Shown: positions 2,648-37,285 of the stretch, one piece after another
Position numbering within the stretch: position 1 is the stretch's first letter
Layout: each line of letters opens with the position of its first letter
From: an uncultured Gammaproteobacteria bacterium
GTDB lineage: Bacteria; Cyanobacteriota; Vampirovibrionia; LMEP-6097
Direction of reading: 5' to 3'
Assembly: GCA_964517685.1 (NCBI GenBank)
Contig: CAZFCF010000001.1
Coordinates: 153,458-217,457, forward strand
DNA: 64,000 bases
Translations under genes and position numbers: made by a program
Notes under the pieces: generated by a model
What the model was told of the DNA's origin: nothing
The model's input: only the letters and a program-made list of their open reading frames with translations
The model's database searches: none

Positions 2648-3775
2648 TCAAAAACTAAAATCCAAGCCTAGATTTTCATCTTGTTTTTCTATTAAATAAA
2701 ATAATTTATCACCGTTATTGTTTTCTGGCTCAGTTTTTACGGCTAATGCTTTGCGCTTTGAAGTTCTCTTCGGTCCTTTTAGACCGACTTTTAATTCATT
2801 GAATTCTTTTTTTGTATTAGGAAGAGTTTTTACTTCTTCTAGTTGGATGGTTTTAGAGTTATTTTTTAAATAATAAAACCCCAGAATGAAGAGAATTGCG
2901 GAAATAAGTAACAGGCAAATTATTACTACAGTGGCTTTAGCTCTAGTATTTGGAATTTTGACCATATGGTTTTTGTTTAAAGAGTTGTTGATATTAATTA
3001 ATTTTGGAAATAATAAATTTATTGAAGAGCCTTCACCAGCAAATGTATCAATTTCAATTTTACCTTGATGGAATAACATTATACTTGATAGTCCGCTAAG
3101 CCCATGTCCATCAGCATTTTGGAAAGAAGCATTTTTTAGTTTATTAACTACCTCTTGAGGCATGGCTTTACCAAAAGAGCTAATTCTAATTTGCCAGTGG
3201 CGAGATCTATCTTTAAGTTCAATTTTAATTTCATCTTCAGTGTATTTAAGAGCATTTTCAATAAGATTAATTAGAGCTTTTGAAACTAAATTGAAATTTC
3301 CTGCTATTAAAGCATGCTCGTTTTGACTGCAATTTGAAAATTTAATGCGATTAAAGTTACTGAGCTGAAAAAGCTCTAGTTCAAGTAAGTCTTTAAGGTC
3401 TATGGTTTCTTTTTTATAGAGTAAATCAAAATTTTTATAAAAATCAAAATCTTCATTAGAGTTTTCAAAAGCAATTAGATTATTTTTTAGTTCTTCAAAT
3501 AGTGATTGAAAATGAAAGGCAGCTCCTTTCGCAAAGTTATAACTATTTTCTGTATCTTGGTTATAAATAGAGGATTTGATCAATGCAAAAAAATTTGCTG
3601 CATCATGTAAATGTGAGAGATTCAGAGCGATTAAAGAATTGATGTAGTTTTTTACTTTATTTTTTTCTTTAAGTAAATTGGCTTGCTCGTGATATTGGTT
3701 GATTAATAAAGTGAGGCCTGCTGAAAACAATGCAGTAGCAATTAATATAATTGAAATTAACACCCCGTCCCCCAT
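2648..3775 (-). CDS. membrane-anchored histidine-kinase-like ATPase (HATPase_c-like)
   Basis: N-terminal TM; ENALKYT (N-box-like), GHGLSGLS (G2-like), possible H-box LSHLHDAAN; second TM and basic tail at C-terminus. Confidence 0.5.
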   Translation of the reverse strand: MGDGVLISIILIATALFSAGLTLLINQYHEQANLLKEKNKVKNYINSLIALNLSHLHDAANFFALIKSSIYNQDTENSYNFAKGAAFHFQSLFEELKNNLIAFENSNEDFDFYKNFDLLYKKETIDLKDLLELELFQLSNFNRIKFSNCSQNEHALIAGNFNLVSKALINLIENALKYTEDEIKIELKDRSRHWQIRISSFGKAMPQEVVNKLKNASFQNADGHGLSGLSSIMLFHQGKIEIDTFAGEGSSINLLFPKLININNSLNKNHMVKIPNTRAKATVVIICLLLISAILFILGFYYLKNNSKTIQLEEVKTLPNTKKEFNELKVGLKGPKRTSKRKALAVKTEPENNNGDKLFYLIEKQDENLGLDFSF

Positions 3776-3797
3776 GTGTAACTGCTTATTCTATCAT

Positions 3798-3834
3798 TTG
3801 CGCAGGGGGATTGCTTCACTGCGCTTGCAATGAC
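3798..3834. repeat. palindromic repeat half-unit TTGCGCAGGGGGATTGCTTC..GCAATGAC
   Basis: module shared with copies at 2582, 43413, 44169, 52172; abuts stop codon of the 3838..5085 gene. Confidence 0.8.
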
Positions 3835-3837
3835 GTT

Positions 3838-5085
3838 CTATTTCATTTTGAAAATATTTAAAGACAAAGGCAATAGAATAAAGCCAATGATGGAGATCAC
3901 TACTTCAAAGATTCCGTTATTAACATCGTTAAATTCTTGGGCTAAGAGTTTAATGAGTAAAAAAATTAAGGGTATTAAAGTCAAACTAAATAAGCATTTA
4001 GACCATTTAAAGAGGTTCTCAAAGAAGCTTTGTTTCAGGCTTGGAAACATTATAGTAAGAGCCCAGAGTGGGCTAATGATTTTGCCGAGAATGATAAAAA
4101 TGATTAAACCAATTACAAAGAAATAAACAAAAACTTGTGAAATGCTATCTATGATGCTCAGTATGAGTGCTGGCATATAGCCGATGTGGTTACTGATATT
4201 TTCCCAGCTTCTTTCTAGGCTGAAATAATCTAGTCCTAAGTCAATAAAATTAGTTTCAATAATGCTGTGTATGCCAGCTTGAATTAGTGTAATCATTTCT
4301 ATGATAATGTCTAAAATAGGTCCAAGAAAACTAATTAAAAGTAGGCATACTAGTGAGTCGTAGATAATTTGTGAGTAAGATTCATGGTGTTGTTCAGTGG
4401 GTTTTATATTTTTGAATACTCGCATTGTAGTAAATAGGGTTAGGAGTATATAAGCAATAACTTGAAAGAAATTAAATAAATCTTGGCAAACCCTTTTCTC
4501 TAGTAGGTTTTGTGTGATTAGAACTAAGTTGGAATGATCAAAGTTAAAGTAGTTTGAAAAATCACCAAAATTAGAGAGTATACCGCCAAATAAATTGCCG
4601 AGATTGAATATATCGGAATCTTCTTGATTACCACTAATAAATTTTTCAGTATTAATGTGTGAATTTAAATTAGAATTTAAAATTTCTTCAGTTGTTTTTC
4701 GGCGTTGATATTCAGGGTAACCTGCCAAAGTGTCTTTAATAGCATATTTGACTCCGTTCTTTACCTGGAAGGTGACATCGACAGCTCCAGTGCCGAGAGA
4801 AAATTTATTAAAACCAAAATTAGTTACTTGTTCCCTGACTTCACCAACAATGCTGTTATCAAATAAATCGGTGATGGTCTCTATAAAATCTGTTTCTTGA
4901 CTTGTATATTCCAAAGGAGATTTTTCTTTGTAAACATCGATTTTCTTGTTTTCCTCTTCAGGATATTGATTTTGAAAAATATTGCTTGGAATATCTAGAA
5001 TATTTAATTTAATCTGTGAGTCTTTTGCTTTAACCGCTGAAACACTGATAAATAATATGATTAAGGCTAAGTATAGTTTTTTCAT
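3838..5085 (-). CDS. T4SS VirB6/TrbL-like polytopic membrane protein
   Basis: signal peptide MKKLYLALIILFISVSAVKA, ~200-aa periplasmic region then >=6 hydrophobic helices; position downstream of VirB4 in canonical virB order. Confidence 0.4.
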   Translation of the reverse strand: MKKLYLALIILFISVSAVKAKDSQIKLNILDIPSNIFQNQYPEEENKKIDVYKEKSPLEYTSQETDFIETITDLFDNSIVGEVREQVTNFGFNKFSLGTGAVDVTFQVKNGVKYAIKDTLAGYPEYQRRKTTEEILNSNLNSHINTEKFISGNQEDSDIFNLGNLFGGILSNFGDFSNYFNFDHSNLVLITQNLLEKRVCQDLFNFFQVIAYILLTLFTTMRVFKNIKPTEQHHESYSQIIYDSLVCLLLISFLGPILDIIIEMITLIQAGIHSIIETNFIDLGLDYFSLERSWENISNHIGYMPALILSIIDSISQVFVYFFVIGLIIFIILGKIISPLWALTIMFPSLKQSFFENLFKWSKCLFSLTLIPLIFLLIKLLAQEFNDVNNGIFEVVISIIGFILLPLSLNIFKMK

Positions 5086-5633
5086 TGTTTCACCTTGAAT
5101 AGTGGTATTGCTTTAACTATCAAATCATCTTTATTAATAATCAATTCAATAGTTAAATTACGAGCTTGATACTTAGTATCACTAAATATTTCTTGACCTA
5201 GAACTATGACCTTATTTTCTTTTTCATTGAGCTCTTCTAAATAGAGATCCTCAATAGTAAAACTGCTATTCAAGTTTTGTTTTTGCCTGTTTTCAAGTTC
5301 AATGGCTAGAGTCTCACTAAAGAGGTTCATGTCGGTATGCTTCTGTATAAAATTAATCGACTCTTCAGAGGTTTTAAAGAAATTTTCTAGATATATATGA
5401 GTAAATTTTTTAATTTGCTCTGGGTTAATTGTTTTACTAGGTTCTTGATTTGATTTTACGGTCTGGGATTTTTCTTCTCTGGATATTGTTGGTATTTTTT
5501 TCTTATGCACTTCTAATAACTGAATAGTAAAAAACATATTGAGTATAAGGCTTAGACAGAGAGCTAGTTGTAGCTTCTTTACTAAGCCTGGCTGCGCCAT
5601 CCAGTCAAAGAATATAGTATTCTTCTCATCCAT
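5082..5633 (-). CDS. bitopic membrane protein, T4SS-associated (VirB5/VirB8-like position)
   Basis: 183 aa, single N-proximal TM (LALCLSLILNMFFTIQLL), overlaps neighbours by 4-8 nt (operon coupling). Confidence 0.3.
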   Translation of the reverse strand: MDEKNTIFFDWMAQPGLVKKLQLALCLSLILNMFFTIQLLEVHKKKIPTISREEKSQTVKSNQEPSKTINPEQIKKFTHIYLENFFKTSEESINFIQKHTDMNLFSETLAIELENRQKQNLNSSFTIEDLYLEELNEKENKVIVLGQEIFSDTKYQARNLTIELIINKDDLIVKAIPLFKVKQ

Positions 5634-8409
5634 GAATTAAAGTCCTTAGAAGTTCTTGGCTAGTATTTAATGCTGCTAATTTACTTGTTTGTGTTTGTTT
5701 AAAATTTTCAAAGAGCTGATTCCTTTTATTTGCAAATTCTCTGGTTGAATTAGTCAGAATATTTTCAAGTGGATTAAGACTAATATTCATAAGTCCACTA
5801 GAACGAGTGCTTTTCATAAATACAGTACCCGCGTTATTCAAGAGCCCTGAATTAATGATTTCAGATTCTTTCTCTGTTAAATTACTAAATCGTGAAATTT
5901 CAAATCTATCTTTAAATTCTTTCAATTGAAAAACAAAAGAACAAGAAGAGTTCGAATGAACTTCAGCAGGTAGGTCACAAGGTTTTTGGGAGATAGTCCA
6001 AAGCCCAAGATCTAGTCCTCTACCAGCTCTGGCGAGGTGAGTAAGTAAGTCTTTTGCGTATACTGACTTATTACTGCCAAATAATTTCCATGCTTCATCA
6101 ATAATTAAATTGGTCTTAGCTTGCTTGAAGAAAACTATTTTTTTGGAAATAAAATTAACTACTAGAAATAAACTGGCTCTAATAAAGCTCTCATCACTAG
6201 TGATTTTGGAAAAAGTGAATAGAACTAAGCGATCGTTAATTTTAAGTTCTTGACCATCAGCAAGAGCAGCATAAATACCATTACTGATATAACAATATGG
6301 AGAAATGATTTCTAACCATTCTTTGCTTAATGCTGCTGAATTAGTTTCTGTATAAGCTTTCCATAGATTGTATAAATCACTAAAACGAGGTTTAGCATAT
6401 TGTGCATAGAGCTCTTTAAGGCTCTGTATCAAGAAAGCCTTCTCACCTGTCTGTAATTCTTTATCAGGACTTTTCAGTAGTTTTAGAAAATTAATTAAAT
6501 CATCGATGTGTTGATTGAGATTGTATCTTGGACATTGAGTAAATTCAAAAGGTGCAAATAAAGACTCACCTTCATCTAAGTTGATCTTGTCTATTTCTAT
6601 AATTTTGCCACCTAGATAATTAGTGAAGAAGCTCCAACCATCTTCAGTACTATCTACTATGTAAAAAAATCTATCTTGCTCGGCAAACATCCTTAATAAG
6701 AGGATTTTGGCTAAGACGGTTTTGCCAGAACCCGAATCACCAATAAAATTAAAATTTCTATTGTGAAACTCTGAGCGATTATAGTCATCTACAAAAATTA
6801 CTTTTTGTGATTTATGATCAAAGCCTGCTATGAAACCTTCTTTCGAGCCAATTTGTGATCTTATGAAGGGGAAGCAAGCTTTAGCAAAGTCTAAACAGGC
6901 AAAGTGCATTTCCTTGTCATTTAGCTTGTTATAGGCAAAGGGTAGCGAATAGTGATAGTTTGGAACCTGTTGCCTATCTAGTCCTGAAATCTTGGAATAT
7001 TTAATTGAGCTTAAAATACTATTATCGATTTTTTGTAATTCATTTAGATCTTTACAAAAAATAGTAATGAAAATTGATATATCAAAACTTATAGCTTTCT
7101 CTAAAAGTTTCTGACTGGCAAGTTCGGTTTCTTTTATGATTGCTAAAGTGCTTTGCCTGCTGAGGTTTGAGAGTTGTTTAGAGTAGATGGATTTTTGTTC
7201 TAATTTTAATCTGTCCTTTAAAGCATTGCGGCTTAGTAACTGAATGCTAATTATGGATTTACAAGAAGTGTTTTTGATGAAATCATAAACCCAAAAATCT
7301 AAGTCACCGCTTTCTGGACTGAAAACCATTCGATAGGTTTTTGTAATGGTCGGGGAATCTTTGCTTGATTTATGCTCTATATACTTTGCTCTATCAATTA
7401 GTTTAATTTCTTCATTAGTTAAGGACTGGATCCTTACGCTTCGCTCAGGATGACGATTAGGGTCGAAGTATTCTTTACCAAGCCATTTTTCTGTGAAATT
7501 TTGTAAATCTATATGCTCTAATTGTTCTGATTGAATATTATTGTTTTGGAAAAATTCTTGGATCTTTTTGATTTTCTGTTTGAGTAAATAATTTTCCTCT
7601 ATAAGTGCTTGCTGCTCTTTTTCTAAAATTGCTTCTTTGTTTTTATTAAAATATTTATTGTAGAAAGCAAACAAAGACTTAAAAATTGGGTGAATGTTGT
7701 TTCTTTGGTTTTTTTGCCTGATAATCATATAAAAATTAGTTTCTGGAATAAATTTCTCTTCGCTTGTTTTGGCTTGAAGGTAGTCACTGTATGCTTTTTG
7801 GTAGTTTTGATAGTTAAGACAATCGCTCTGGATATCATTTAGTATTGGCATTTGGTAAGAATCTATTTCAATAAAGAGCTGAATGATATCGCCATAGTTT
7901 TTTTCTGAAAAGAAATATGATTTGATATTTTTGATTTCAGAAACAGTAGCGAGAATATTTTCCCAATTGCGTAAGAAGTTTTCTATTTCAGTTTTATCCA
8001 GGCGATTTAAAACAATTCCACTTTGGATTTTTATAATTGCTATTTGATCGTTGTCCTTGCTAAGTAAAAAATCATCATAGAGAGATTTAATATCAATTAG
8101 TTCTTTAGTGGAGATATAGCCTTGAGAGTTTTTGCCTCTAGTAAAATGATGATTTGCAAATGGGTGAAATATAAATGAGCTATAGAATCCTTTGATTTCT
8201 GGTTCCTGACTGCTTTTGATAACTAAGCTAAGAATGATCATATAGAGCGTAGCTAGGAAAATTAGTAATGGGCTATTTAGGGCTAATCTTAAGGATAGGG
8301 CGATATAGAGGAGTGATATGGAAAGAAGAAGGATCTTCAATATTGCCCAAAGATTGAGCCCTAGAAATAGCTCAGGCTCTTTTTTAATATGTCGGAAGGT
8401 TTGGATCAT
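5626..8409 (-). CDS. virB4: type IV secretion ATPase, VirB3-VirB4 fusion type (CagE/TraG-like)
   Basis: N-terminal two TM helices (VirB3-like), Walker A GDSGSGKT, Walker B/VirB4 signature IIDEAWKLF, C-terminal WTISQKP (VirB4 motif). Confidence 0.75.
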   Translation of the reverse strand: MIQTFRHIKKEPELFLGLNLWAILKILLLSISLLYIALSLRLALNSPLLIFLATLYMIILSLVIKSSQEPEIKGFYSSFIFHPFANHHFTRGKNSQGYISTKELIDIKSLYDDFLLSKDNDQIAIIKIQSGIVLNRLDKTEIENFLRNWENILATVSEIKNIKSYFFSEKNYGDIIQLFIEIDSYQMPILNDIQSDCLNYQNYQKAYSDYLQAKTSEEKFIPETNFYMIIRQKNQRNNIHPIFKSLFAFYNKYFNKNKEAILEKEQQALIEENYLLKQKIKKIQEFFQNNNIQSEQLEHIDLQNFTEKWLGKEYFDPNRHPERSVRIQSLTNEEIKLIDRAKYIEHKSSKDSPTITKTYRMVFSPESGDLDFWVYDFIKNTSCKSIISIQLLSRNALKDRLKLEQKSIYSKQLSNLSRQSTLAIIKETELASQKLLEKAISFDISIFITIFCKDLNELQKIDNSILSSIKYSKISGLDRQQVPNYHYSLPFAYNKLNDKEMHFACLDFAKACFPFIRSQIGSKEGFIAGFDHKSQKVIFVDDYNRSEFHNRNFNFIGDSGSGKTVLAKILLLRMFAEQDRFFYIVDSTEDGWSFFTNYLGGKIIEIDKINLDEGESLFAPFEFTQCPRYNLNQHIDDLINFLKLLKSPDKELQTGEKAFLIQSLKELYAQYAKPRFSDLYNLWKAYTETNSAALSKEWLEIISPYCYISNGIYAALADGQELKINDRLVLFTFSKITSDESFIRASLFLVVNFISKKIVFFKQAKTNLIIDEAWKLFGSNKSVYAKDLLTHLARAGRGLDLGLWTISQKPCDLPAEVHSNSSCSFVFQLKEFKDRFEISRFSNLTEKESEIINSGLLNNAGTVFMKSTRSSGLMNISLNPLENILTNSTREFANKRNQLFENFKQTQTSKLAALNTSQELLRTLIHG

Positions 8410-8864
8410 TATGCCGGCAAACCACGTGAAAGATTATTGAGTAAGTTGTATCCACCTAGACCGACAGCAGCCAATGGTGAAGCAGTTTGTAACATGTCCC
8501 CCAGTTGTGCTGTTAGACCATAAAAACTACTAACATAATCACTTGAGACATTATTGGCTACGTCGCCATATAGAGTGTTCATACTAAACTCTCCACCGAC
8601 ATCACCGATAATGCTAAATATCAGTGGCAGTATTTGGATAAGGAAAACTCCAGCAGTTGTAGTGCCTACGGAGGTAACGATAGCCGTAGTTCCCTGTGCT
8701 TGATTTCCCCCTTCTCTAGTGACTCTTAGGGCTTTATGTTTACCTAAGATCCTTTCTTCGAGCATCCTATAAGCCCAAATCGGACTTGTGGCTGCTGCTA
8801 GTAGTACAAGGCTCTTTAGGCAAAATCCTAATACTGCTACTGAATTCATTACTAATATGTTCAT
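8409..8864 (-). CDS. small hydrophobic protein, candidate VirB2/TraE-type pilin
   Basis: 151 aa, hydrophobic N-terminus plus Gly/Thr-rich hydrophobic core; immediately upstream of virB4; start ambiguous (alt. Met at ~8765). Confidence 0.3.
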   Translation of the reverse strand: MNILVMNSVAVLGFCLKSLVLLAAATSPIWAYRMLEERILGKHKALRVTREGGNQAQGTTAIVTSVGTTTAGVFLIQILPLIFSIIGDVGGEFSMNTLYGDVANNVSSDYVSSFYGLTAQLGDMLQTASPLAAVGLGGYNLLNNLSRGLPA

Positions 8865-9438
8865 CTTTTAGTGCCTCCTTTAAAGCTTCTAATGCGACTT
8901 TGATTTGATAAGTTTTGGGTTTGAGTAAGAAATATTTTTGTTGAATTTTAGTGGTGATAACTAAGGTTATAAAAACTGAAAAACTTAGCCAAGCTATCAT
9001 AAACACTAAATTCTTATTGAGAAATAGAAAAATATTAGGCAGGGCTGAAAGTAATAAAAGTAAACCTGAGCTGAGAAAAATAGTCGTTCCACAAAACATT
9101 GAAAACGGTTTGGTTTTTTCTATTTCTTCGAGTCTTGGAATAAACTTCCTGATTACTTTTAAACTGGTATTGGCTTTGAGATTTTTGATTTTCTCCTGAA
9201 AACAGTTATAGACTTTATGCTCAGCTGCATGAAATTCTTTGGCTAACCTCGATAGTTCACCGTTAATAGTGCGATATGGTGGTGCACCTAGGTAAGAACC
9301 AGTCTTGATCGGAGCTAAATCCTCATTTGCATAGAAGATCTCATCGAGATCAATCTTGGCGTATGCGGTTTTTTTGCCTATTGAAAAATAAATAGCACCT
9401 GGCTCGCTGTAGCCGTCCATTCTTTGTCCCCCTGTCAA
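8767..9438 (-). CDS. hypothetical membrane protein
   Basis: 223-aa ORF with C-terminal TM helices; first gene of the minus-strand T4SS-like block. Confidence 0.3.
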   Translation of the reverse strand: MTGGQRMDGYSEPGAIYFSIGKKTAYAKIDLDEIFYANEDLAPIKTGSYLGAPPYRTINGELSRLAKEFHAAEHKVYNCFQEKIKNLKANTSLKVIRKFIPRLEEIEKTKPFSMFCGTTIFLSSGLLLLLSALPNIFLFLNKNLVFMIAWLSFSVFITLVITTKIQQKYFLLKPKTYQIKVALEALKEALKDEHISNEFSSSIRILPKEPCTTSSSHKSDLGL

Positions 9439-9514: not shown

Positions 9515-10648
9515 TTACGCTTTAGCTTCTTTATTCAAAAACAAATCCAAAATAGTAAAACGATTTTTACGTGTTTGTGGTGCTAGTTCAATAATTTTTT
9601 TGAGCTCAGTTGCATCTATGCCTATATCTGCAAACTTAGTGGGGAAGCCTAGTTCACTAAGTAGCTTGAATAGAATTGAGTTGTACTCAAGCTTTTCAAA
9701 ATCAACTTTATCTAAACTTAAATCAAAATCATGTGCTTGAGAAAAAATACTTTTGATCAAATCATAGCCTCTGAGACTTTCTAGAAAAAGTGTTGCCACT
9801 AAAACTTGAATGCCGTGTGATGCCTTCTTGCCATGTCCATAAATTTCATCGATGGCATGAGAGATCATGTGTTCGGCTCCAGAACAAGGTCTTGAGTTGC
9901 CACTTATACTCATAGCGATTCCTGAAACTGCAAGTGCTTCAATTAATGATCTAAGAAAAAATTCTTCATGAATAAAATCTTCAGACCAATTTGCTTTTTG
10001 ATTTTTAAGTTTAACTTGTGTTTCCAAAATTGATATAACCGTCATGGCAGACTGTTTTGAGAGCATTGCAGCAAAGCTATCAATCTCTTCACCTTTGTAT
10101 TTATTTGCAAGTTTCCAATCTTCTATTGCAGATAAATTAGCAATCAAATCACCGACACCAGATTGAATTTGTGCAGTGCTGGCATCTTTGATAATGAATA
10201 AAGGTACTAGCAAAGCATAGGGCATCACTGCTCCGTAGCTTTTGCCATTTAAGACTGCTACAGGTGAGCAGATACCATCATGTGAAATTAAAGTCGGTAC
10301 GCTGATAAATTTTGAATTAGTTTTAGCTGCTAAATATTTTACTTGATCGAGTACCTTGCCGCCACCAACTGCTAAAAGCCAATTGTTATCGAGCTTCTGG
10401 CTTAATTCACTTTCGTGCAGTAGAGCTTGCTCGTCGATTATTTGATAATTTATTTTGCAATTTTTAATCTGCGTAGAAGTCTCTAAATCTTTTGCTAGTT
10501 GATTAGCAAGAATAAAGCTTGCATAAGTGCCTGCGAAAATATAAAGTTTAGTAATTGCATTCTCTGTGATTAAATCTTCAATCACAGTTAACAAAGCAGC
10601 ATAGTCATCTGCAATTTTTAGTTCTTTTGGTATTGTAATTTGACGCAT
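9515..10648 (-). CDS. sn-glycerol-1-phosphate dehydrogenase / glycerol dehydrogenase-like Fe-ADH (EgsA/AraM family)
   Basis: AVGGGKVLDQVKYLAAK (GGGxxxDxxK NAD motif), SVPTLISHDGICSP (metal/substrate motif as in G1PDH TASNDGIASP). Confidence 0.6.
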   Translation of the reverse strand: MRQITIPKELKIADDYAALLTVIEDLITENAITKLYIFAGTYASFILANQLAKDLETSTQIKNCKINYQIIDEQALLHESELSQKLDNNWLLAVGGGKVLDQVKYLAAKTNSKFISVPTLISHDGICSPVAVLNGKSYGAVMPYALLVPLFIIKDASTAQIQSGVGDLIANLSAIEDWKLANKYKGEEIDSFAAMLSKQSAMTVISILETQVKLKNQKANWSEDFIHEEFFLRSLIEALAVSGIAMSISGNSRPCSGAEHMISHAIDEIYGHGKKASHGIQVLVATLFLESLRGYDLIKSIFSQAHDFDLSLDKVDFEKLEYNSILFKLLSELGFPTKFADIGIDATELKKIIELAPQTRKNRFTILDLFLNKEAKA

Positions 10649-11406
10649 TCTAAATCTTTTGCTTTTTGGTAATCTTCTTTAGTATCAATTTCAGTCCAAC
10701 CAAAACCTTCTGTAGAAACTGCTTTTAGTTTAAGCTCGCTTGTAATTCTATCAAGAGCATCTTCGTAATATTTATCATAGATACCATTAGCTATCATATT
10801 TTCAAGAGAAGCTTTGAACTTGGAAGCATCATTGTTACTAAGTCTTAAAATCCCAATGTACTCACCAAAAGATTTTTGATTATCAAGTTGTTTGTGAATT
10901 CGTATAATGTTTTTTTGTTCGTTGAGTAAAACTTTCATATCTTCGTCAACCAATGCCTCACTATTATCCACGATCATAAAGCTCTCTTTATTTGCCTTTA
11001 GAGCATCGACACTAATTGCTAGAATGCGCTCGTCATAGACAATATCAGAATTAAATATCAAAGTATTTTCATCTATAAGATCTCGAATTAAATAAGCTGT
11101 GTAAATATTGTTTCTATCTTTATAGTAGTCATTAAAGATTGAACGTATCTGCAAAGGTTTATAGTAATCTGGATTGCCACGCCCGCCTGCTCCTCGCAAT
11201 GACGATTTTTTAATGACGGCAGCTATCTCATCTGCCGCATGTCCGGTGACAATGATGATCTCTGTAAAATCATATTGACTCATTAACTTGAGATTTCTTT
11301 CAAGAATAGTTTCAGATTCATTTATAGGTAAACAGCACTTTGGTAAATCTTTTGTAAGATCACCTAACCTAGTTGCCATGCCTGCTGCAAAGATAATTCC
11401 GCGCAT
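10618..11406 (-). CDS. LicC-family cytidylyltransferase (CTP:phospho-alcohol/phosphonate cytidylyltransferase-like)
   Basis: MRGIIFAAGMATRLG (GxGTRL), IRSIFNDYYKDRNNIYTAYLIRDLI closely parallels S. pneumoniae LicC VRLVFNDKYADYNNFYSLYLV; overlaps G1PDH-like gene by 31 nt; contains in-frame repeat insertion. Confidence 0.65.
   Translation of the reverse strand: MRGIIFAAGMATRLGDLTKDLPKCCLPINESETILERNLKLMSQYDFTEIIIVTGHAADEIAAVIKKSSLRGAGGRGNPDYYKPLQIRSIFNDYYKDRNNIYTAYLIRDLIDENTLIFNSDIVYDERILAISVDALKANKESFMIVDNSEALVDEDMKVLLNEQKNIIRIHKQLDNQKSFGEYIGILRLSNNDASKFKASLENMIANGIYDKYYEDALDRITSELKLKAVSTEGFGWTEIDTKEDYQKAKDLECVKLQYQKN
11171..11203. repeat. palindromic repeat unit (GGATTGCCACG..CTCCTCGCAATGAC) inserted in-frame in LicC-like CDS
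   Basis: encodes KKSSLRGAGGRGNP on minus strand, a segment absent from LicC homologues. Confidence 0.75.
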
Positions 11407-11498
11407 ATTGACTTATTGTCTCATAAAAAAATGCTTTTGTAATTTTACTTTGGTTTAGTTTCAAAATCTTTATGGTATATCTTATATTATGACCATTT

Positions 11499-12257
11499 TT
11501 GAATGAGTCTATACCTGAATTTAAAACAAGAATGTCGACTCAAGAAGATAAAGTAAAATCTCTAAAAATTAATTCGAAGAATAGCGCAAAAGACATTGCT
11601 AAGTTTATGCCGATCGTAGAGATGATCGCAAGAAAAGAATCTCAAAACAAATCCAAACAAATCATCAGTTACGATGAGATGGTTAATACTGGCTTGATAG
11701 CAGTTAATAAGCTTATTGAAAGTGCAAAGTTAAACGAAGATACTGAATACAATTCAAGTTATATCGCTCAATCAGTTAAGTGGGCAATGAAGGACGAAAT
11801 TCGTTCTAGACAAGGTTGGTATGGTGTTAAAACTGTTATTGCCGTTGATGGCAAGGAGCCAGTTGCTGCTGATGGTGCTGAAGGGCAAGCTAAACCAGAT
11901 CCTACTGAAACTACAGAGATTAATAGTTTTGATGATGCACGTAAAGCTGTTTTCGAAGTAATTATGTCGGTTGAAGGCATGGAAGAAGAATTAGGTTTTT
12001 CTCCCGCTGATACTAATCAAGTTGAAGAACTTGAAAGACTTGAATTACTTGCTATGAAAACAAGTTTAAAAAAATCTGTTTCTAAACTACCAAGTAATTT
12101 ACGTGAAGTTATAGAATTACGTTACTATGATTGCCTCAGTGGAAACGAAGTCGCTGACAAGCTTGGAGTTACACCATCAAGAATTTCTCATATGATTAAA
12201 GAAGCTGTGAAGAAGCTTCGCGTTTCCATGGTTGCAGAAGGATATACAGGCGACTAG
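11499..12257 (+). CDS. sigma-70 family alternative sigma factor (group 3, FliA/SigF-like)
   Basis: region 2 YIAQSVKWAMKDEIR, region 4 HTH LSGNEVADKLGVTPSRISHMIKEAVKKLR; true start probably Met at ~11532. Confidence 0.65.
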   Translation: MNESIPEFKTRMSTQEDKVKSLKINSKNSAKDIAKFMPIVEMIARKESQNKSKQIISYDEMVNTGLIAVNKLIESAKLNEDTEYNSSYIAQSVKWAMKDEIRSRQGWYGVKTVIAVDGKEPVAADGAEGQAKPDPTETTEINSFDDARKAVFEVIMSVEGMEEELGFSPADTNQVEELERLELLAMKTSLKKSVSKLPSNLREVIELRYYDCLSGNEVADKLGVTPSRISHMIKEAVKKLRVSMVAEGYTGD

Positions 12258-12260
12258 AAT

Positions 12261-14156
12261 CTAAGGAGTAGTAGGTGCTGTAGTTGCTCCATTTGTAGTG
12301 GTAGTTTTAATTACACCACTCTTGATTCCTTGTTGTAGCAATCCCTGTAAAGCAGTCCCTAGCTGTTGTTCAAGTTCTCGTTTAGAACTTTGGGTTGTAC
12401 CATTAGTAGTCTGTGGAGCAGTTGTTTGTGTTTTACCATTTTGTAGAGCTGAGTTTAAAGTATCAGATAGTCCTTTGAGTTTGGAATTTTTCTCAGCGGT
12501 TTTTTGTAAATAGTTTAACCCTTGTTGTAGAGCTGTTTGTACTACTTTACCTTTGTTAAGTTTTGCCAGTGCTTCTAAATCTGGATAAATAGAAGGCTTG
12601 TTTATGGTTCCTCTTATTTTCATTGGTAGAGGGCTTGGTAATTCCTTACTGTTAAGTACTATGTCATAAACTATCCACTGACCATTTTTGACAGTACCTG
12701 ATCCAGTAATATCAGCAACAGAAGTATGAATAAGGATATCGTCAGTTCGTAAAAAATTATTTTCAAGATGGAATTTAGAATTCAGAGTAGCAAATTCATC
12801 TGAAATCTTCTTAGTAAGCTCGCTTCCGTTCTTAATGATTGCATCTGCTAAGTCATTATATTTTGTAATGTTTTTAAGAATATATAATGAACCGTCTTTT
12901 ATAGAGATTTGACCATCAGCTATAAATGATTTATTGATTTGTTTTGCATCGAGACCTGCAAATCTAAAACTATAATTGTTGATTTCGAAAACTCCAAATA
13001 CTACTTCTCTTGTATTCGTGAAGCAATTAAGTGCCTCTTCAATCTCAAGCCCTGAAAGGTTTCCAGATCCACTGCCACTCATATACATTGATTCAAGATT
13101 TACATTAACTTTCGTGTTTGCGGTCAAGGTAGCACTTTTAGAATTTTTGTCTTTGAGAGTAACTTTTGCATTATTGCTGAGTAAAGAGAGATTTGGGTTC
13201 TTGATCATATTGATAGAGAATCCTAATGGAACAGTAGTATTAACTTCGATAGTATGGTCTACAGTGTTACCTAATAGTAGATCATTGATTTTTAAATTTC
13301 CTGAACCGTGCATAACATCGAGGACATCGCCAGTAAGGCTGGAATCATATTTTAATGATGAGCCACTAGTGACTTTAATACCATTACCCAAAATTTGACT
13401 TTTGAGTTCTTGAGGTAAATCATTAAGTTTGATATTAATGCTGAACCTACCGTTGATTGGTAATTTATTAAACTTAGTACCGATTGGTCCCAAATCTGCA
13501 TCACAAGTAATGTTGGAGCTTTTAACTCCAAAAAATTCTGCGGTCATTTTTAATTTAGAAATTACTTCTTCTTGGTCGCTTACAACAAAATCAGAAAGCT
13601 CTAAATTGAAATTATTTAGGATGATTGGTTTTTTAGCTTTATGTGGAGTGAATTCATAAGTTGAGTCTTTGATAATAAATTCTTTTAAATTGAAGTCTGT
13701 AATAAACTCATCTTTGTTTTTCTTGTTTTTGCGTTTCTTTTTCTCTTTCTCAAGTTTTTCCTGTAACTCAGTTAAATTGATACCTTTAGGAAAAACTTCG
13801 CGTTTAGAGTTCTCTTCGAATCTAAGAATTGATTTATCAAGAATGATTTTCTTTATATAAAGTCTCTTCTCAAGTAAAGATCTAAGTTCTAATTCTGCAT
13901 TTAATTCTTCAACGTCGATAGCGTCACCAATTTTTAATTGAGTGATTGCCAGGGTTGGTTTTAATCTCAGCAAAGCCGGAAAGTCGAATTTAACATCACC
14001 AAAAGAAATCTTGATGTCGGTTTCCTTTTTTACATAGTCGGTTATAGCGACTAGCACATCATGTTTAAAAGAGCCTTGTATATAAAAATATAATCCAGTG
14101 AGGACTATAAGAAATGCTGCAAGAAAAATACCTAAAATAGAAAGAGCTTTTTTCAT
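12261..14156 (-). CDS. AsmA-family outer-membrane assembly protein
   Basis: N-terminal TM anchor, AsmA-like N-domain, long beta-rich body, T/Q-rich C-terminus. Confidence 0.5.
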   Translation of the reverse strand: MKKALSILGIFLAAFLIVLTGLYFYIQGSFKHDVLVAITDYVKKETDIKISFGDVKFDFPALLRLKPTLAITQLKIGDAIDVEELNAELELRSLLEKRLYIKKIILDKSILRFEENSKREVFPKGINLTELQEKLEKEKKKRKNKKNKDEFITDFNLKEFIIKDSTYEFTPHKAKKPIILNNFNLELSDFVVSDQEEVISKLKMTAEFFGVKSSNITCDADLGPIGTKFNKLPINGRFSINIKLNDLPQELKSQILGNGIKVTSGSSLKYDSSLTGDVLDVMHGSGNLKINDLLLGNTVDHTIEVNTTVPLGFSINMIKNPNLSLLSNNAKVTLKDKNSKSATLTANTKVNVNLESMYMSGSGSGNLSGLEIEEALNCFTNTREVVFGVFEINNYSFRFAGLDAKQINKSFIADGQISIKDGSLYILKNITKYNDLADAIIKNGSELTKKISDEFATLNSKFHLENNFLRTDDILIHTSVADITGSGTVKNGQWIVYDIVLNSKELPSPLPMKIRGTINKPSIYPDLEALAKLNKGKVVQTALQQGLNYLQKTAEKNSKLKGLSDTLNSALQNGKTQTTAPQTTNGTTQSSKRELEQQLGTALQGLLQQGIKSGVIKTTTTNGATTAPTTP

Positions 14157-14160
14157 AGTT

Positions 14161-14409
14161 ATAACTTTATTTTAGCCTTTATTTCAATAAGTCTTAGAAG
14201 TGTAATGTGATATCCATATGGATTCAACTTCATTCCGCTTAGAGCAAATCTAGCTCGGTTTGAATTACGCTTCGCGACCGAAAGATTTTACTGTAAAAAT
14301 TAAATTCAAAAACTTCGCACCTTCGCTGATTTGCTTACTAAGCTTCACTTGTTTCATCTCATATTCCTATCAAAATTACACTTCATAAGACTTATTGAAT
14401 AAAGTTATA
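14161..14409. mobile_element. MITE-like structured element copy 1 (~167-bp conserved core within a 36-46-bp inverted repeat)
   Basis: core 14207-14373 ~80% identical to core at 19580-19746; flanks ...gtcttagaagtgtaat / attacacttcataagac... are inverted repeats unique to this copy. Confidence 0.7.
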
Positions 14410-14431
14410 AAAAATTGAGTGATGTACCATA

Positions 14432-14460
14432 AGAATGGTAGCTGAGGGCAGAGTCGCGAA
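14432..14460. other. direct repeat of tRNA 3' end plus flank (att-like duplication)
   Basis: gtaccataagaatggtagctgagggcaga vs 14513-14541 gtaccataaagatggtagctgagggcaga (28/29). Confidence 0.7.
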
Positions 14461-14523
14461 GGCGACTCATGAGAAAGAGAAGAACTGTTCAGTTCAAATC
14501 GTAAAGTGTAAGTACCATAAAGA

Positions 14524-14600
14524 TGGTAGCTGAGGGCAGATTTGAACTGCCGACCTGTGGGTTATGAATCCACCGCTCTCACCAACTGAGCTACTCAGCC
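14524..14600 (-). tRNA. tRNA with CAU anticodon (elongator Met or Ile2/lysidine)
   Basis: 77 nt: GGCTGAG-TA-GCTC-AGTTGGTGA-GAGC..GTGGA-TTCATAA-CCCAC..GGCAG-TTCAAAT-CTGCC-CTCAGCT-A-CCA; CCA encoded. Confidence 0.85.
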
Positions 14601-14677
14601 AAAAATTTCTTGTTATTAAACAAGAAACGTTTAACTATATTCGCATGAGCAAAATATAAATTCAATAGCTAATAAGT

Positions 14678-17600
14678 TTATAGCCTTGCATTTCGTAGCG
14701 AACCTAGATTTTCTTTAGAAAGTTGTAATGATCTTTCTCTTAGAGTGCTTACATTCTTCAAATTTCTCCATTCAAAACTTAAGCCAACTGCTGGACTGAG
14801 TAGAGGTCTAGGAAATTTTTTCAAAAGATCGATAAGGATATTCTTGGCATTTAGTTGATTAGGGAAGCTTTCTTTCTGAGGATCATCAGCTATTAATAAA
14901 TTAACTTTTTGTTGTAAAAATTTATGTACTAAATCAATCTTTGCTTGTAATTCCCTTACCTGTTGTTCTCTATTTATATTATTGTCCTGATCTAAGAATT
15001 GACTAGGTCTTAAATTCAAAAATTTATTACTGTGTGTATTAAAAAGAAATCCAATCTGATTTAAGTAATGCAAAGTCTTAATCATATTAAAAATATCTTC
15101 TTCATTATTGTCTTTAATTTCAAATTCACCATGTCGATTTATATTTTGTTTCAGAAGGCTCTCTGCAAGGTTTGTAACTTTATCGAGTAAAGAATTTGCA
15201 ACTGCTGTTTTTACTTTGGGATTATTACAGTGTTTGGCATAATCTACAATTAAATCCAAAGTTGTTTTTACTTTTTTAGTACTAAATTCGTCAGAATTTA
15301 TGATTAAATCTAGGTCTGTGTCTAAATACATAACTTTAGTAATAGCTTTATCTAAGCCCTCAAGCATGTGAACATCTTTTCTATCTTTGAAAATTTTGCT
15401 AATTACTCCTAAAGTTCTTTGATTCTGATTAATATTTTTTTCTAATTCAGCATAGATGTAAATTAAATCTTTGAGAGAATCTTTACTCTCTCTGCCTGTA
15501 GCTATATCATTAATTCTTGAATCAAGCTCTTCAAATAGAGATCTAAAAGTACCTGTATGTTTTGGATCTAAGCTTAGATTGTCATCCTTTAAGCCTAATG
15601 CTTGGCTTCTGAGTTTGCTATACAGTGTTTTTGGAATTATATTTTCAAGTCTAAGTTTTTCATCAAGCATTGACCCAACAATGTTTGCTTTAATTTTTAG
15701 TGCTTGAATATCATTCGTTTTTTCAGGTAAAAACTTTACCAATATATAAAAAAGCCAAGTAGCAAGAATTATATTGTGTGATTTTAGAATGTCAAATTCT
15801 GCTTCATTACGATTGGCATTTAAAGCTGCTTCAATACTCTTTTTCAGAAATTTCATGATCACATCGGCACGATTTAATAAAAATCCTGTATTGGACAAAC
15901 TTTCTGATAACCTTGTAAAGGTTTCATCAATTGCTTTACTGTGTCCAATTGGTGCGTATTGAATATCACCGTTCTCATCTTTGAGCAAAGATTCTATTTT
16001 AATAAATTCAATTACTTCTTCTATTTCTTTCATCTCCCGTTGAGAGAGAACAGAACTTTCTTTTGGTCCCCAACTTTGTGCTAGTAAAATATTCAATGGA
16101 AGAATACCAGTACGAGTGGAGTTGAACATAAATTTAAATAACTCTTCTATGTAAGGTTTAGCTGCATAACGGTTTAAATAGTCATCAGGACTAAATAATT
16201 TAGTAGAATTAGTTAATTCTAAAGCCAAGTGGCTAATGTATTCAACTACTGATGTAATGTGGATTTCAGATTTTTCTTTACTAATAAGATCTTTCATTGC
16301 TGCATATCTTTTCGCATAAAAATCTTTAATCCAAGGGATAGAATCTTTTTGATAGCTTTCATAGTTTTCTAGTAAACTGTGATCATCTTTTTTCCAACCT
16401 TTATAAGTGCTAATGGCATCAATGCCAGCAAGTGCGCTAAGTTCAAGAACTATTCTTTCGAAATTCCTTTTAGCATCATCGTCATTAAAAAGAAAATTAA
16501 GTAAATAAGTTGCTTCAACTTTATATCCTCCTGGCAAGGTTTCTGCTTGAGTGCTACCTAATAATTTAGATACAGTTCCAGCTGGGACCCAATTGGATTT
16601 GATTTTCTCAAGTTCACCCTTCATATCAATCCCTAAGTTCTCCCAGATTGGAAACTTTTCTAAATCATTGATTCCTTTAAATGAGTTCGATTCATTTCTA
16701 CCCCATTTATTGAAAAACTGTCTTAGATCACTTTTTCGATGATTGAATTTGCTGATTTCTGCTGTTTGTAGCTTGTCAGAAATATGATCATATTTAAGTT
16801 CAACGCTTTTAATTATGGTTGTTGTATATAAATCTAAAACTTTTTGTGCTAAGTCTTGGGGGATAGAACCGATATTTATTTCATTACTTTCATTTTTGCC
16901 ATTATTAATCAATACTGTACCTTGAACTATTTTTTGTAATTTAGTAATAAAAGCTAAGTTTGAATAAAGATCAGTTTCATTTATTTTATTTAAATCCAAT
17001 CCAGAATTGAAAATAGGTTTAACTAAATTACTATCTAAAATTCCAAAGTGACTACCAATAATTAGTTTCCTAATATTTGGCCAAGCTTTTTCCGTAGTTA
17101 ATTGCTTGAATGTTTTTGAATCTGATGAGCCTGCTTTTTGACCAGGAATCATTGCAGTTATTTTATTTAAAAATTTACTTGAAACCTCGGAACTGACTTC
17201 TTTTAATGACTGTATCGTTTCTAGGAAATCAGCTTGTAAAATTGAGGAATTTTCTAAAGTTTCATTGAGTATAATTTTTTGAATTTCATTTATTAAAGCT
17301 AAGCATGATTCACAGTATTCATGAAGGTATAATTCAAATTGATTTTTTACTTCTTCAAAATTTGCATTGTTGTCTATTTGGGAAATTTTTTGAAAAGTTT
17401 CTTGAATAAGAATTTCAGCTATTTGGAGACTTGGTTCTTTGATTTGACCTTTTACTAAATTAGAACCTTCTTTATTACGTAACTTCTGTTTCATGTCGGT
17501 AAGGAGATCATTTATCAATGGATTTGCTTTATAAATTTCAAAGTTATTGCTTTGTTCACGAGCTTTAAGTTCACTAAGTATTTTTTCTGATATTGGTTTT

Positions 17601-17833
17601 TTGGAAACTATTAATTCCATATCAGTATTTGTAGTTAAAAATTTACCGGGATTGTTGAAACCTTTATTATCTTTTGAATCTCGATCTGAACTTTGTTTTA
17701 AATTTGTAGGAGATCCTTCTTTTGTTTCCCAAGATGAATCAGTATGCGCGCTCTTCTTAGTTTCAGCACCAAAGATATATTCTTTGGCTTTTGAAAACAA
17801 ATTAGTTCCAAATGTATAGATGCTCGCTGACAT
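14678..17833 (-). CDS. large (1051 aa) hydrophilic hypothetical protein (effector-like)
   Basis: single uninterrupted ORF, no TM/signal peptide, no recognisable catalytic motif. Confidence 0.55.
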   Translation of the reverse strand: MSASIYTFGTNLFSKAKEYIFGAETKKSAHTDSSWETKEGSPTNLKQSSDRDSKDNKGFNNPGKFLTTNTDMELIVSKKPISEKILSELKAREQSNNFEIYKANPLINDLLTDMKQKLRNKEGSNLVKGQIKEPSLQIAEILIQETFQKISQIDNNANFEEVKNQFELYLHEYCESCLALINEIQKIILNETLENSSILQADFLETIQSLKEVSSEVSSKFLNKITAMIPGQKAGSSDSKTFKQLTTEKAWPNIRKLIIGSHFGILDSNLVKPIFNSGLDLNKINETDLYSNLAFITKLQKIVQGTVLINNGKNESNEINIGSIPQDLAQKVLDLYTTTIIKSVELKYDHISDKLQTAEISKFNHRKSDLRQFFNKWGRNESNSFKGINDLEKFPIWENLGIDMKGELEKIKSNWVPAGTVSKLLGSTQAETLPGGYKVEATYLLNFLFNDDDAKRNFERIVLELSALAGIDAISTYKGWKKDDHSLLENYESYQKDSIPWIKDFYAKRYAAMKDLISKEKSEIHITSVVEYISHLALELTNSTKLFSPDDYLNRYAAKPYIEELFKFMFNSTRTGILPLNILLAQSWGPKESSVLSQREMKEIEEVIEFIKIESLLKDENGDIQYAPIGHSKAIDETFTRLSESLSNTGFLLNRADVIMKFLKKSIEAALNANRNEAEFDILKSHNIILATWLFYILVKFLPEKTNDIQALKIKANIVGSMLDEKLRLENIIPKTLYSKLRSQALGLKDDNLSLDPKHTGTFRSLFEELDSRINDIATGRESKDSLKDLIYIYAELEKNINQNQRTLGVISKIFKDRKDVHMLEGLDKAITKVMYLDTDLDLIINSDEFSTKKVKTTLDLIVDYAKHCNNPKVKTAVANSLLDKVTNLAESLLKQNINRHGEFEIKDNNEEDIFNMIKTLHYLNQIGFLFNTHSNKFLNLRPSQFLDQDNNINREQQVRELQAKIDLVHKFLQQKVNLLIADDPQKESFPNQLNAKNILIDLLKKFPRPLLSPAVGLSFEWRNLKNVSTLRERSLQLSKENLGSLRNARL

Positions 17834-31894: not shown

Positions 31895-32911
31895 ATGACA
31901 TACCACTTCAAACCTTATCATCCAATAGAAAATAGCTCGCGCGAAGACTATCTGCAAGAGCTAAGAGAGAATCAGCTTGACCAAGGAATTTTTGTAGTTC
32001 AAGAAAAAGTTCATGGTGGCAATTTAGTTTTTATTACTGATGGCAAAGAAATTCGCTGCGCGAAGAGAACAGGTTTACTGGATGATAATGAAAGGTTCTA
32101 CAACTTTCAGAAAGTAAGAGATCGCTATCGTGAAAAAATACTTGCAGCTTATAAGCGAGTTAAAGAGTTATATCCAGAGATGGATGAGTTATATATTTTC
32201 GGTGAAATCTTTGGTGGACAGTATCCACATCCCCAAGTGCCTAAAGTGGAGTCAGCGATTAAGTTACAACAAGGTGTATTTTATTCTCCTGATAATGATT
32301 TTTATGCATTTGATTTGCGAGTCTATAACAAAAGCTATTTGGATTTGGATCTCTCGACAAAGATTTTTGCAGAGCTGGGATTTATTCATGCTGAAATTCT
32401 TTTTCAAGGTTCGCTTGAAGAGTGCCTGGCTTATCCAAATGAATTTGAATCTAAGATTCCTGAGTATTTGGGTTTACCTTTAATCCCAGGCAATATTGCT
32501 GAAGGCGTAGTCATTAAGCCGCTTAGCGCGAAGTTTCTGCCAAGTAAAGAGAGGGTCATACTCAAGAATAAAAATCCAAAGTACGAAGAGAAAATTATCA
32601 AGAAACATAAAATTAAAAAACCTAGACCGAAGATATCGGATGCTGTAACTGATCTACGCCAAGAAACTTTGGCATATATCAATGAAAATCGTTTGAAATC
32701 TGTAACGAGCAAAATTGCTGAAGTTAATTTATCAGAGATCAAAAATGACCCTAAGCAAATTGGAAAATTCTTAGGACCCTTTGCGCAAGATGTTTTACAG
32801 GATTTCCTTAAAGACTTTGGGACTGAGTTTGAAGCTTTAGAAAAGGCTGATCAAAAACTTATTAAGCAGTTTGTTTCAGATGAGTGTATGAAGTTGTTGC
32901 GGAGAGTTTAG
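31895..32911 (+). CDS. ATP-dependent RNA ligase, T4 Rnl2 family (full length incl. C-terminal domain)
   Basis: EKVHGGNLVFI..IRCAKRTG (motif I; T4 Rnl2 EKIHGTNFSLI..VTCAKRTG), YIFGEIFGG (III), FYAFDL, AEGVVIKP (IV), VILKNKNPKY (V). Confidence 0.85.
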   Translation: MTYHFKPYHPIENSSREDYLQELRENQLDQGIFVVQEKVHGGNLVFITDGKEIRCAKRTGLLDDNERFYNFQKVRDRYREKILAAYKRVKELYPEMDELYIFGEIFGGQYPHPQVPKVESAIKLQQGVFYSPDNDFYAFDLRVYNKSYLDLDLSTKIFAELGFIHAEILFQGSLEECLAYPNEFESKIPEYLGLPLIPGNIAEGVVIKPLSAKFLPSKERVILKNKNPKYEEKIIKKHKIKKPRPKISDAVTDLRQETLAYINENRLKSVTSKIAEVNLSEIKNDPKQIGKFLGPFAQDVLQDFLKDFGTEFEALEKADQKLIKQFVSDECMKLLRRV

Positions 32912-37226: not shown

Positions 37227-37285
37227 TGTATGACAGGTTTTTGATAGTTAATGAGGGATTGATTATGCCTAAAACTAACCTAGGA

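Follow-up and report, generated by a model that had tools for sequence, protein, structure and literature searches.

What do two overlapping genes make when one encodes a dehydrogenase of the glycerol-1-phosphate dehydrogenase (G1PDH) family and the other a LicC-like nucleotidyltransferase? The question is raised by a 64,000-nucleotide stretch of contig CAZFCF010000001.1 (assembly GCA_964517685.1, positions 153,458 to 217,457), referred to here as the window, in which the two genes lie on the minus strand and share 31 nucleotides (nt) (Table 1). An original prediction, made from the letters of the DNA, had seen in them a two-step route that makes a polyol phosphate and then activates it as a cytidine diphosphate (CDP) or monophosphate conjugate. 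Our analyses incline us to the view that the pair is a co-transcribed, and probably translationally coupled, module that would make CDP-activated glycerol phosphate by way of sn-glycerol-1-phosphate, for use in the cell envelope.

Table 1. The gene pair and its surroundings in the window, with positions counted from the first nucleotide of the window (aa, amino acids; CTP, cytidine triphosphate; DHAP, dihydroxyacetone phosphate).
Feature	Positions	Strand	Remarks
LicC/PntC/IPCT-type nucleotidyltransferase; predicted CTP:glycerol-phosphate cytidylyltransferase	10618..11406	-	262 aa, ATG start
G1PDH-family (Fe-ADH_2) dehydrogenase; predicted DHAP reductase forming sn-glycerol-1-phosphate	9515..10648	-	377 aa, ATG start
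Overlap of transferase stop and dehydrogenase start	10618..10648	-	31 nt, different frames
Divergent intergenic region between the pair and the sigma-28-like gene	11407..11498	.	92 nt
FliA/WhiG-like (sigma-28-like) sigma factor	11499..12257	+	Pfam Sigma70_r4; NCBIfam FliA_WhiG 72.7 bits
Protein A, membrane protein, remotely DUF1385-like	8767..9420	-	217 aa, HAAEH motif
Protein B, small	8409-8765	-	
VirB4-like ATPase	5626-8409	-	Pfam AAA_10; NCBIfam VirB4_plasma 128.8 bits, cut-off 590
Protein D, membrane	5082-5633	-	
Protein E, membrane	3838-5085	-	
HATPase_c protein	2648-3775	-	

Neighbors of the gene pair in other phyla

The lists of homologues of the dehydrogenase and of the transferase have many contigs in common, and a linkage scan, in which hidden Markov models (HMMs) of both families were run over the 80 loci that a GTDB search with the dehydrogenase alignment had yielded, placed the families next to each other in 22 non-redundant loci from Melainabacteria-like clades, Actinomycetota, Bacillota, WOR-3 and Kerfeldbacteria. 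The transferase gene precedes the dehydrogenase gene in every gene table of relatives that was examined. At least two Melainabacteria-like clades carry the pair, that of the window and a second one (loci L010 and L019), as do Solirubrobacterales, Thermoleophilaceae and others among the Actinomycetota and, in the Bacillota, the cultured Marinithermofilum abyssi; it is also present in a metagenome-assembled genome (MAG) of the Clostridia, and a scan of metagenomes with the dehydrogenase alignment added seven linked loci and one clade member. Among loci labelled bacterial, the dehydrogenase is linked to the transferase in 16 of 28, and no transferase was found beside the archaeal enzyme, EgsA, at the about 50 archaeal EgsA genes scanned. 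One MAG labelled Nitrosopumilales (L015, 350-8014) carries a dehydrogenase of the bacterial clan, the transferase, a CDP-OH-like gene and two PF01663 genes, one of whose products is 49.6% identical to its counterpart at the Caenarcanales locus L019; the presence of the pair there is due either to horizontal transfer or to a binning error.

All open reading frames (ORFs) within 7 kb of the pair were clustered across the 22 loci, and the families that recurred were annotated with Pfam. They comprise CDP-alcohol phosphatidyltransferases (PF01066, CDP-OH_P_transf), often on both sides of the pair, and TagF-like CDP-glycerol:poly(glycerophosphate) glycerophosphotransferases (PF04464), together with type I phosphodiesterase-family proteins (PF01663), Wzx-type flippases, ABC-2 exporters and sugar transferases. 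PF01066 or PF04464 occurs within 7 kb in 10 of the 13 linked loci from outside the Melainabacteria, versus 2 of 63 unlinked loci (Fisher p = 1.8e-8), and at one of these two exceptional loci the sequence ends exactly where the transferase would lie. The same neighborhood of CDP-alcohol users recurs in the metagenome loci L100, L108 and L110. Consumers of CDP-alcohols, and of CDP-glycerol in particular, are thus characteristic partners of the pair, and it is this association, the strongest evidence that we have, that argues for CDP-activated glycerol phosphate as the product and that has strengthened the make-then-activate idea of the original prediction. The transferase that would use the product, for which that prediction had advised looking elsewhere, has plausible counterparts in the neighborhoods of other phyla; the search for it within the window was negative.

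In cultured Gram-positive bacteria the pair sits in a cluster of six to seven genes that includes two CDP-alcohol phosphatidyltransferase-family proteins, one of them fused to DUF5941, together with a glycosyltransferase and an ABC-2 exporter. The RefSeq order in Streptomyces fungicidicus p1 (L097, 5384-12439) is CDP-OH_P_transf/DUF5941, transferase (named 'phosphocholine cytidylyltransferase family protein'), dehydrogenase ('iron-containing alcohol dehydrogenase family protein'), CDP-alcohol phosphatidyltransferase, glycosyltransferase and ABC transporter, and that in Marinithermofilum abyssi (L023, 8035-13459) is CDP-OH, transferase, dehydrogenase, ABC-2 permease, ABC ATPase and CDP-OH. Both clusters look as if they served a glycerol-phosphate polymer or lipid that is exported and has yet to be characterized; that of Streptomyces adjoins hpnCDE. 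At a further metagenome locus (L105, 6349-10169), a G1PDH homologue has TagF-like genes on both sides and no adjacent LicC-like transferase, which suggests that another type of cytidylyltransferase can fill the role.

These neighbors bear directly on the usual reading of bacterial G1PDH homologues in the literature (PMC6431249, PMC13400652), according to which the sn-glycerol-1-phosphate from the dehydrogenase would go into membrane lipids, archaeal-type or heterochiral, in the manner of AraM/PcrB in Bacillus or of FCB-group bacteria; the transferase beside it would then be functionally unrelated. We regard such a purely lipid role as highly improbable for the pair, since it is contradicted by the overlap of the two genes, which is conserved across phyla, and by the co-occurrence of both families on the same contigs. 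In addition, the recurrent neighbors are transferases that use CDP-alcohols, with no prenyltransferases among them, and no evidence was found for the ether-lipid-type chemistry that the original prediction had offered as one possible fate of the product.

Layout and authenticity of the two genes

Proteins identical to both gene products occur in several independent public assemblies (largest contig 415,815 bp), and homologue searches returned 719 homologues of the dehydrogenase at E ≤ 1e-5 and 78 of the transferase, on which grounds both ORFs are genuine genes and not chance. The overlap described in the original prediction was confirmed by the ORF coordinates and by the codons themselves, the dehydrogenase ATG lying at 10648-10646 and the transferase TAA at 10620-10618, and the two motifs that had been quoted from the dehydrogenase, GGGKVLDQVKYLAAK and ISHDGICSP, are both present in its translation. 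As the N-terminus of the dehydrogenase (M1 and P7) is kept throughout the family alignment, the overlap is real and no artefact of the choice of start codon. The two genes overlap or abut in all Melainabacteria-like relatives (spacing -37 to 0 nt), the range over all linked loci being -80 to +62 nt, and the arrangement in the window probably couples their translation.

The divergent region upstream of the transferase probably holds the promoter of the pair; scans for promoter and terminator consensus sequences around the pair gave results no better than shuffled sequence. The opposed orientation of pair and sigma gene is kept in L004, L006, L008, L095 and L099. The transferase of the window carries an insertion of about 12 residues, at about residues 70-85 (LRGAGGRGNPDYY), which most relatives (250-253 residues) lack; this block is modeled with low confidence (predicted local distance difference test score, pLDDT, of 59).

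Family assignment of the two enzymes

Both the sequence and the predicted fold of the dehydrogenase place it with archaeal EgsA and with AraM of Bacillus subtilis. The protein scores 76 bits against Pfam PF13685 (Fe-ADH_2, cut-off 28) and 207 bits, over residues 2-374 and so over its full length, against the NCBIfam G1PDH model NF002022, versus 47 bits for GldA and 19.7 bits for the phosphonate Fe-ADH model TIGR03405. The best sequence matches in the PDB are 3ce9 (a Clostridium structural-genomics entry), the G1PDHs of M. jannaschii and P. calidifontis, and B. subtilis AraM, with GldA proteins far weaker than the G1PDHs. Foldseek searches with the AlphaFold (AF2) model, which has a pLDDT of 88.9, agreed with this ranking: ranks 1-16 are taken by 3ce9, 4rfl/4rgq/4rgv, 5fb3 and 9h4x (AraM), and GldA structures appear from rank 17 with E-values about 1000-fold weaker. 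Membership of the G1PDH family, as the original prediction had it, is thus well founded, and the placement that would have spoken against it, among the dehydroquinate synthases, is ruled out, together with GldA, by HMM scores and fold ranking. In a rough neighbor-joining tree, the transferase-linked dehydrogenases fall in a bacterial clan, apart from the archaeal clan.

The resemblance to EgsA extends to individual residues. When 40 archaeal EgsA proteins and 22 transferase-linked homologues were aligned to the family HMM, nearly all of the columns invariant in the archaeal enzymes proved to be retained by the dehydrogenase of the window, including the motifs GGG..D..K, PT..S.DG..SP, G.GD, DW, G.SRP.SG.EH..SH and HG.Q, as well as the C-terminal R..R.T.L motif. 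Its G95-G97, D101, K104, D167, H260, H264 and H278 do not vary across the family alignment, and they correspond to columns that are likewise fixed in EgsA. The metal ligands of G1PDH are Asp/His/His (PMC6737245), and D167, H260 and H278 are the likely ligands of a divalent metal here.

The transferase scores 39.5 bits against Pfam NTP_transferase, and of the NCBIfam models only that for the IPCT domain of IPCT/DIPPS matches it over its full length (61 bits, residues 1-252). Its sequence matches in the PDB are PntC (6pd1), LicC (1jyk) and IPCT (2xme), and with its AF2 model (pLDDT 93.7) LicC (TMt 0.87) and PntC fill Foldseek ranks 1-9, with IPCT at 11 and 13, so that the LicC-type assignment of the original prediction is borne out and the protein falls squarely among the cytidylyltransferases. 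The N-terminal nucleotide loop, of the G-x-G-x-R-L type (AAGMATRLGDLTKDLPK), aligns with that of LicC (AAGLGTRLRPLTENTPK), and the catalytic residues of the loop, the lysine and the two acidic metal ligands (R13, K23, D121 and D241) are kept by all members of the family. LicC, PntC and IPCT all use CTP and activate a small phospho-alcohol or phosphonate; from these relatives, and from the CDP-alcohol users beside the pair in other phyla, CTP would be the nucleotide and a phospho-alcohol the substrate of the transferase in the window.

Which phospho-alcohol that is cannot be read from the nearest relatives in so simple a manner, as the closest solved ones use phosphocholine, 2-aminoethylphosphonate and inositol-1-phosphate, the best NCBIfam match is IPCT, and in public records such proteins are automatically named 'phosphocholine cytidylyltransferase family' or 'choline kinase'. 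The transferase might accordingly activate phosphocholine, phosphoethanolamine, 2-aminoethyl- or 2-hydroxyethyl-phosphonate, or inositol-1-phosphate, with the dehydrogenase supplying or modifying that substrate, and the set of aromatic and acidic residues invariant in its family could be accommodated by such a reading. We nonetheless find it distinctly improbable, because the partner dehydrogenase is specifically G1PDH-like and no other neighbor family recurs: in the clustering across the 22 loci, phosphoenolpyruvate mutase, choline kinase, LicD and inositol-phosphate synthase were not recurrent, and the TagF-like neighbors point to a CDP-polyol donor. A phosphonate pathway proper, with a PhpC-like reductase and PntC, was considered separately and is ruled out by the TIGR03405 score and by the same neighbor analysis. 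The JGI name 'phosphoenolpyruvate phosphomutase' on one transferase homologue appears to be an annotation artefact.

The proposed pathway and its weight

In the pathway that we favor, the G1PDH-family enzyme would reduce DHAP with NAD(P)H to sn-glycerol-1-phosphate at its divalent-metal site, as its family membership suggests, and the LicC/PntC/IPCT-type transferase would then convert sn-glycerol-1-phosphate and CTP to CDP-glycerol (the sn-1 enantiomer) and pyrophosphate. A CDP-alcohol phosphotransferase or TagF-like enzyme, which would have to be encoded outside the window and whose part is modeled on the other phyla, would finally hand glycerol phosphate on to an envelope acceptor, be it a lipid, a glycan or a polymer. 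Both the sn-1 configuration of the product and the kind of acceptor are inferred.

Several observations weigh against it. The score of the dehydrogenase against NF002022 is below the equivalog cut-off of 413 bits, so that it is a member of the family and no certified G1PDH orthologue, and that it would bind the phosphate of DHAP is suggested by residue conservation alone, such as that of the SRP.SG.EH and C-terminal R..R.T motifs which it has in common with EgsA. The family-invariant E155, E182, Y183, Y214, E215 and W237 of the transferase would be compatible with a cationic phospho-alcohol as well. A search of the 64-kb window turned up no gene of the CDP-OH_P_transf, TagF-like, PF01663 or HAD-IIA families, a CDP-alcohol-using transferase is near the pair in none of the nine Melainabacteria-like loci, and the flanks of these nine loci hold none of the four families except for PF01663 in L019. 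Elsewhere a third gene stands beside the pair, for a HAD-IIA hydrolase in L027 and for a PF01663 protein in L015, L019, L026 and L035, and it is compatible with a route to CDP-2-glycerol.

That route, of the pneumococcal Gtp1/Gtp2/Gtp3 type, is the main competitor. The dehydrogenase would reduce dihydroxyacetone (or DHAP), a third enzyme would lead to glycerol-2-phosphate, and the transferase would make CDP-2-glycerol from it. The gene order in the pneumococcal cps locus is wchX, gtp1 ('putative glycerol-2-phosphate dehydrogenase'), gtp2 ('nucleotidyl transferase') and gtp3 ('phosphotransferase'), and the clostridial locus L027, which in the rough neighbor-joining tree branches next to the Melainabacteria-like clades, matches the order of gtp1-3 with its dehydrogenase, transferase and HAD-IIA hydrolase. 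In the melainabacterial L019, a PF01663 phosphotransferase-type gene lies directly downstream of the pair. For the window, however, we think this route unlikely: neither the window itself nor the surroundings of the pair in close relatives, to a distance of 10 kb, contain a HAD-IIA or PF01663 homologue, and this want of a gtp3 candidate argues for a 1-phosphate product here, while the dehydrogenase retains nearly all of the residues conserved in archaeal EgsA, which uses a phosphorylated substrate.

Our preferred pathway, to CDP-sn-1-glycerol, combines a logic (that of TarIJ and Gtp1-3) and enzyme families that are already known, in a pairing without a description in the literature searched; full-text searches found no paper that ties G1PDH to a LicC-like transferase. 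A phylogenetic study saw no informative gene organization around bacterial G1PDH genes (PMC5059525), and a paper on capsule enzymology held CDP-1-glycerol to be likely absent from bacteria (PMC8262930). If the pair does make CDP-sn-1-glycerol, then bacteria would possess a nucleotide-activated form, made for the purpose, of the glycerol-phosphate enantiomer that is usually attributed to archaea. The genes for bacterial G1PDH now count as evidence of archaeal-like lipids in the debate on the 'lipid divide' (PMC6431249); the 16 linked loci among the 28 examined here are tied instead to a cytidylyltransferase and to enzymes of envelope polymers, and such genes may serve largely for envelope glycerol-phosphate chemistry rather than for archaeal-type lipids. 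One could go further, in a generalization that we put forward as tentative and rather doubtful: that most bacterial G1PDH homologues are not markers of archaeal-type lipids at all, but one half of a widespread, undescribed CDP-sn-1-glycerol module that feeds CDP-alcohol phosphotransferases or TagF-like enzymes for 'wrong-handed' glycerol-phosphate envelope polymers or lipid head groups and that, in the Melainabacteria-like clade, perhaps also serves the VirB4-like apparatus encoded downstream. Were the pathway true, Melainabacteria, the uncultured sister group of the photosynthetic cyanobacteria, would have a glycerol-phosphate-bearing envelope component so far unseen. Streptomyces and Marinithermofilum are cultured hosts in which the chemistry is open to direct test.

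Genomic context of the pair in its own clade

The host is a Melainabacteria-like, non-photosynthetic relative of cyanobacteria, to judge from its SerRS (whose best named relatives are MAGs of Melainabacteria/Cyanobacteriota, at 62-72% identity), its Ycf23-type DUF561 and its pentapeptide-repeat genes. The titles of the nearest GTDB records (L012-L014), 'Chlamydiae bacterium' and 'uncultured Gammaproteobacteria', are at odds with the SerRS of the window and look unreliable. Of these records, L014 has the synteny block of the window, L012 is just 3.9 kb long, and L013 stops at the dehydrogenase.

The original prediction had placed the pair in an accessory context, a notion that did not survive. 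Around it are genes for LpxC, GAPDH, HisZ/HisG, Ycf23-type DUF561, LptF/G, SerRS, RsmE, OTCase and ThyX, as well as RNase P RNA and a tRNA, and the order of sigma gene, pair and VirB4-like block is kept down to relatives with 43-45% dehydrogenase identity. With such housekeeping genes and such deep synteny, the pair belongs to the conserved chromosomal core, and a mobile or accessory island is ruled out. The full order that is kept runs LpxC, a 1051-residue protein, an AsmA-DUF748-like protein, the sigma-28-like gene on the opposite strand, transferase and dehydrogenase, the sigma gene being a conserved, divergently transcribed neighbor of the pair.

Downstream, a block of six genes (A-B-VirB4-like-D-E-HATPase_c; 2648-9420, minus strand) is found after the pair in eight of the nine sub-lineages, again down to 43-45% dehydrogenase identity. 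It is present in L001, L006, L008, L014, L093, L094 (whose fetched contig covers part of it), L095 and L099, and absent from L004, and the second Melainabacteria-like clade has the pair without it. Protein A follows the pair wherever the block does in the clade of the window; its HAAEH..N motif is invariant, transmembrane segments lie toward its C-terminus, and five of six orthologues match DUF1385 weakly (best E 4.9e-4). It is a possible member of the system of the pair. Profile searches with proteins A and E against the PDB gave no significant match. The neighboring type IV secretion system and sigma-factor genes of the original prediction held up in part: the FliA/WhiG-like sigma factor and a remote VirB4-like ATPase are there, and Pfam and NCBIfam scans recognized no partners of the VirB/VirD4 type among the other products of the block. 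The block gives the impression of a membrane machine, domesticated and reduced to a minimum around a VirB4-like ATPase, rather than of a conjugative type IV secretion system; it is syntenic with the pair and may be tied to it in function.

Other features of the window

The interval between LpxC and the sigma-28-like gene holds two conserved proteins, of 631 and 1051 residues (12261-17833, minus strand). The copies in the window have no Pfam match, and orthologues of the 631-residue protein have weak AsmA/DUF748 matches, which suggest that it may be of the envelope lipid-transport type. Four very large ORFs of 858, 847, 925 and 1134 residues (34650-43153 and 47486-50890, minus strand) are also without a Pfam match, and that of 1134 residues adjoins a weakly VirC1/ParA-like gene (50951-52057). 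On the plus strand are tandem paralogues of 881 and 929 residues (55179-57824 and 58060-60849), with pentapeptide repeats and a PcfJ-like C-terminal domain, and, among housekeeping genes, a T4 Rnl2-like RNA ligase with RNA_ligase and T4_Rnl2_C domains (31895-32911). A gene for an AbiEii-type nucleotidyltransferase toxin (257 residues) overlaps that for a 205-residue upstream partner without a Pfam match (44525-45908, minus strand), and the two are likely a type IV toxin-antitoxin pair.

Comparison with known systems

The CDP-2-glycerol pathway of pneumococcal capsule types 15 and 23 was reportedly worked out by Wang and colleagues in 2010 in J Bacteriol. Gtp1 and Gtp2 are probably homologous to the dehydrogenase and transferase families of the window. 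As in the window, a dehydrogenase gene of Streptococcus pneumoniae lies beside a nucleotidyltransferase gene, and the outcome is a CDP-activated glycerol phosphate, there used by the glycerol-phosphotransferase WchX. The differences are that the pair in the window has no gtp3-like gene near it and the reverse order, transferase then dehydrogenase; that it resides in the housekeeping chromosome of a Gram-negative, Melainabacteria-like organism and not in a capsule locus; and that its expected product is the 1-phosphate rather than the 2-phosphate isomer.

TarI and TarJ (and the Bcs1 fusion), a ribitol-5-phosphate cytidylyltransferase and a ribulose-5-phosphate reductase, make CDP-ribitol for teichoic acid synthesis. 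The logic is the same, a keto-sugar phosphate being reduced to a polyol phosphate that is then activated with CTP by the products of two adjacent, co-expressed genes, but another polyol is involved, and the families (an MDR-type reductase and an IspD-type transferase) are unrelated to ours. Archaeal EgsA and B. subtilis AraM share with the dehydrogenase of the window their family, fold and conserved active-site residues. EgsA, however, feeds ether-lipid synthesis and had no LicC-like transferase linked to it at the archaeal loci scanned, AraM sits in the ara operon, and the score of the dehydrogenase in the window is below the NCBIfam equivalog cut-off for G1PDH.

In IPCT/DIPPS of Archaeoglobus and the Thermococcales, IPCT, the best NCBIfam match of the transferase, is fused to a CDP-alcohol phosphotransferase, a design of transferase plus phosphotransferase that is met again in other phyla where the pair is flanked by CDP-OH_P_transf. 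In the window, by contrast, the enzyme that would supply the substrate is G1PDH-like instead of an inositol-phosphate synthase, and no CDP-OH_P_transf is fused or adjacent. Finally, TagD/TarD/Gct, the CTP:sn-glycerol-3-phosphate cytidylyltransferases, resemble the pair in the class of product predicted, CDP-glycerol, and differ from it in having the HxGH cytidylyltransferase fold (PF01467) and in using an sn-3 substrate that comes from GpsA or GlpK.

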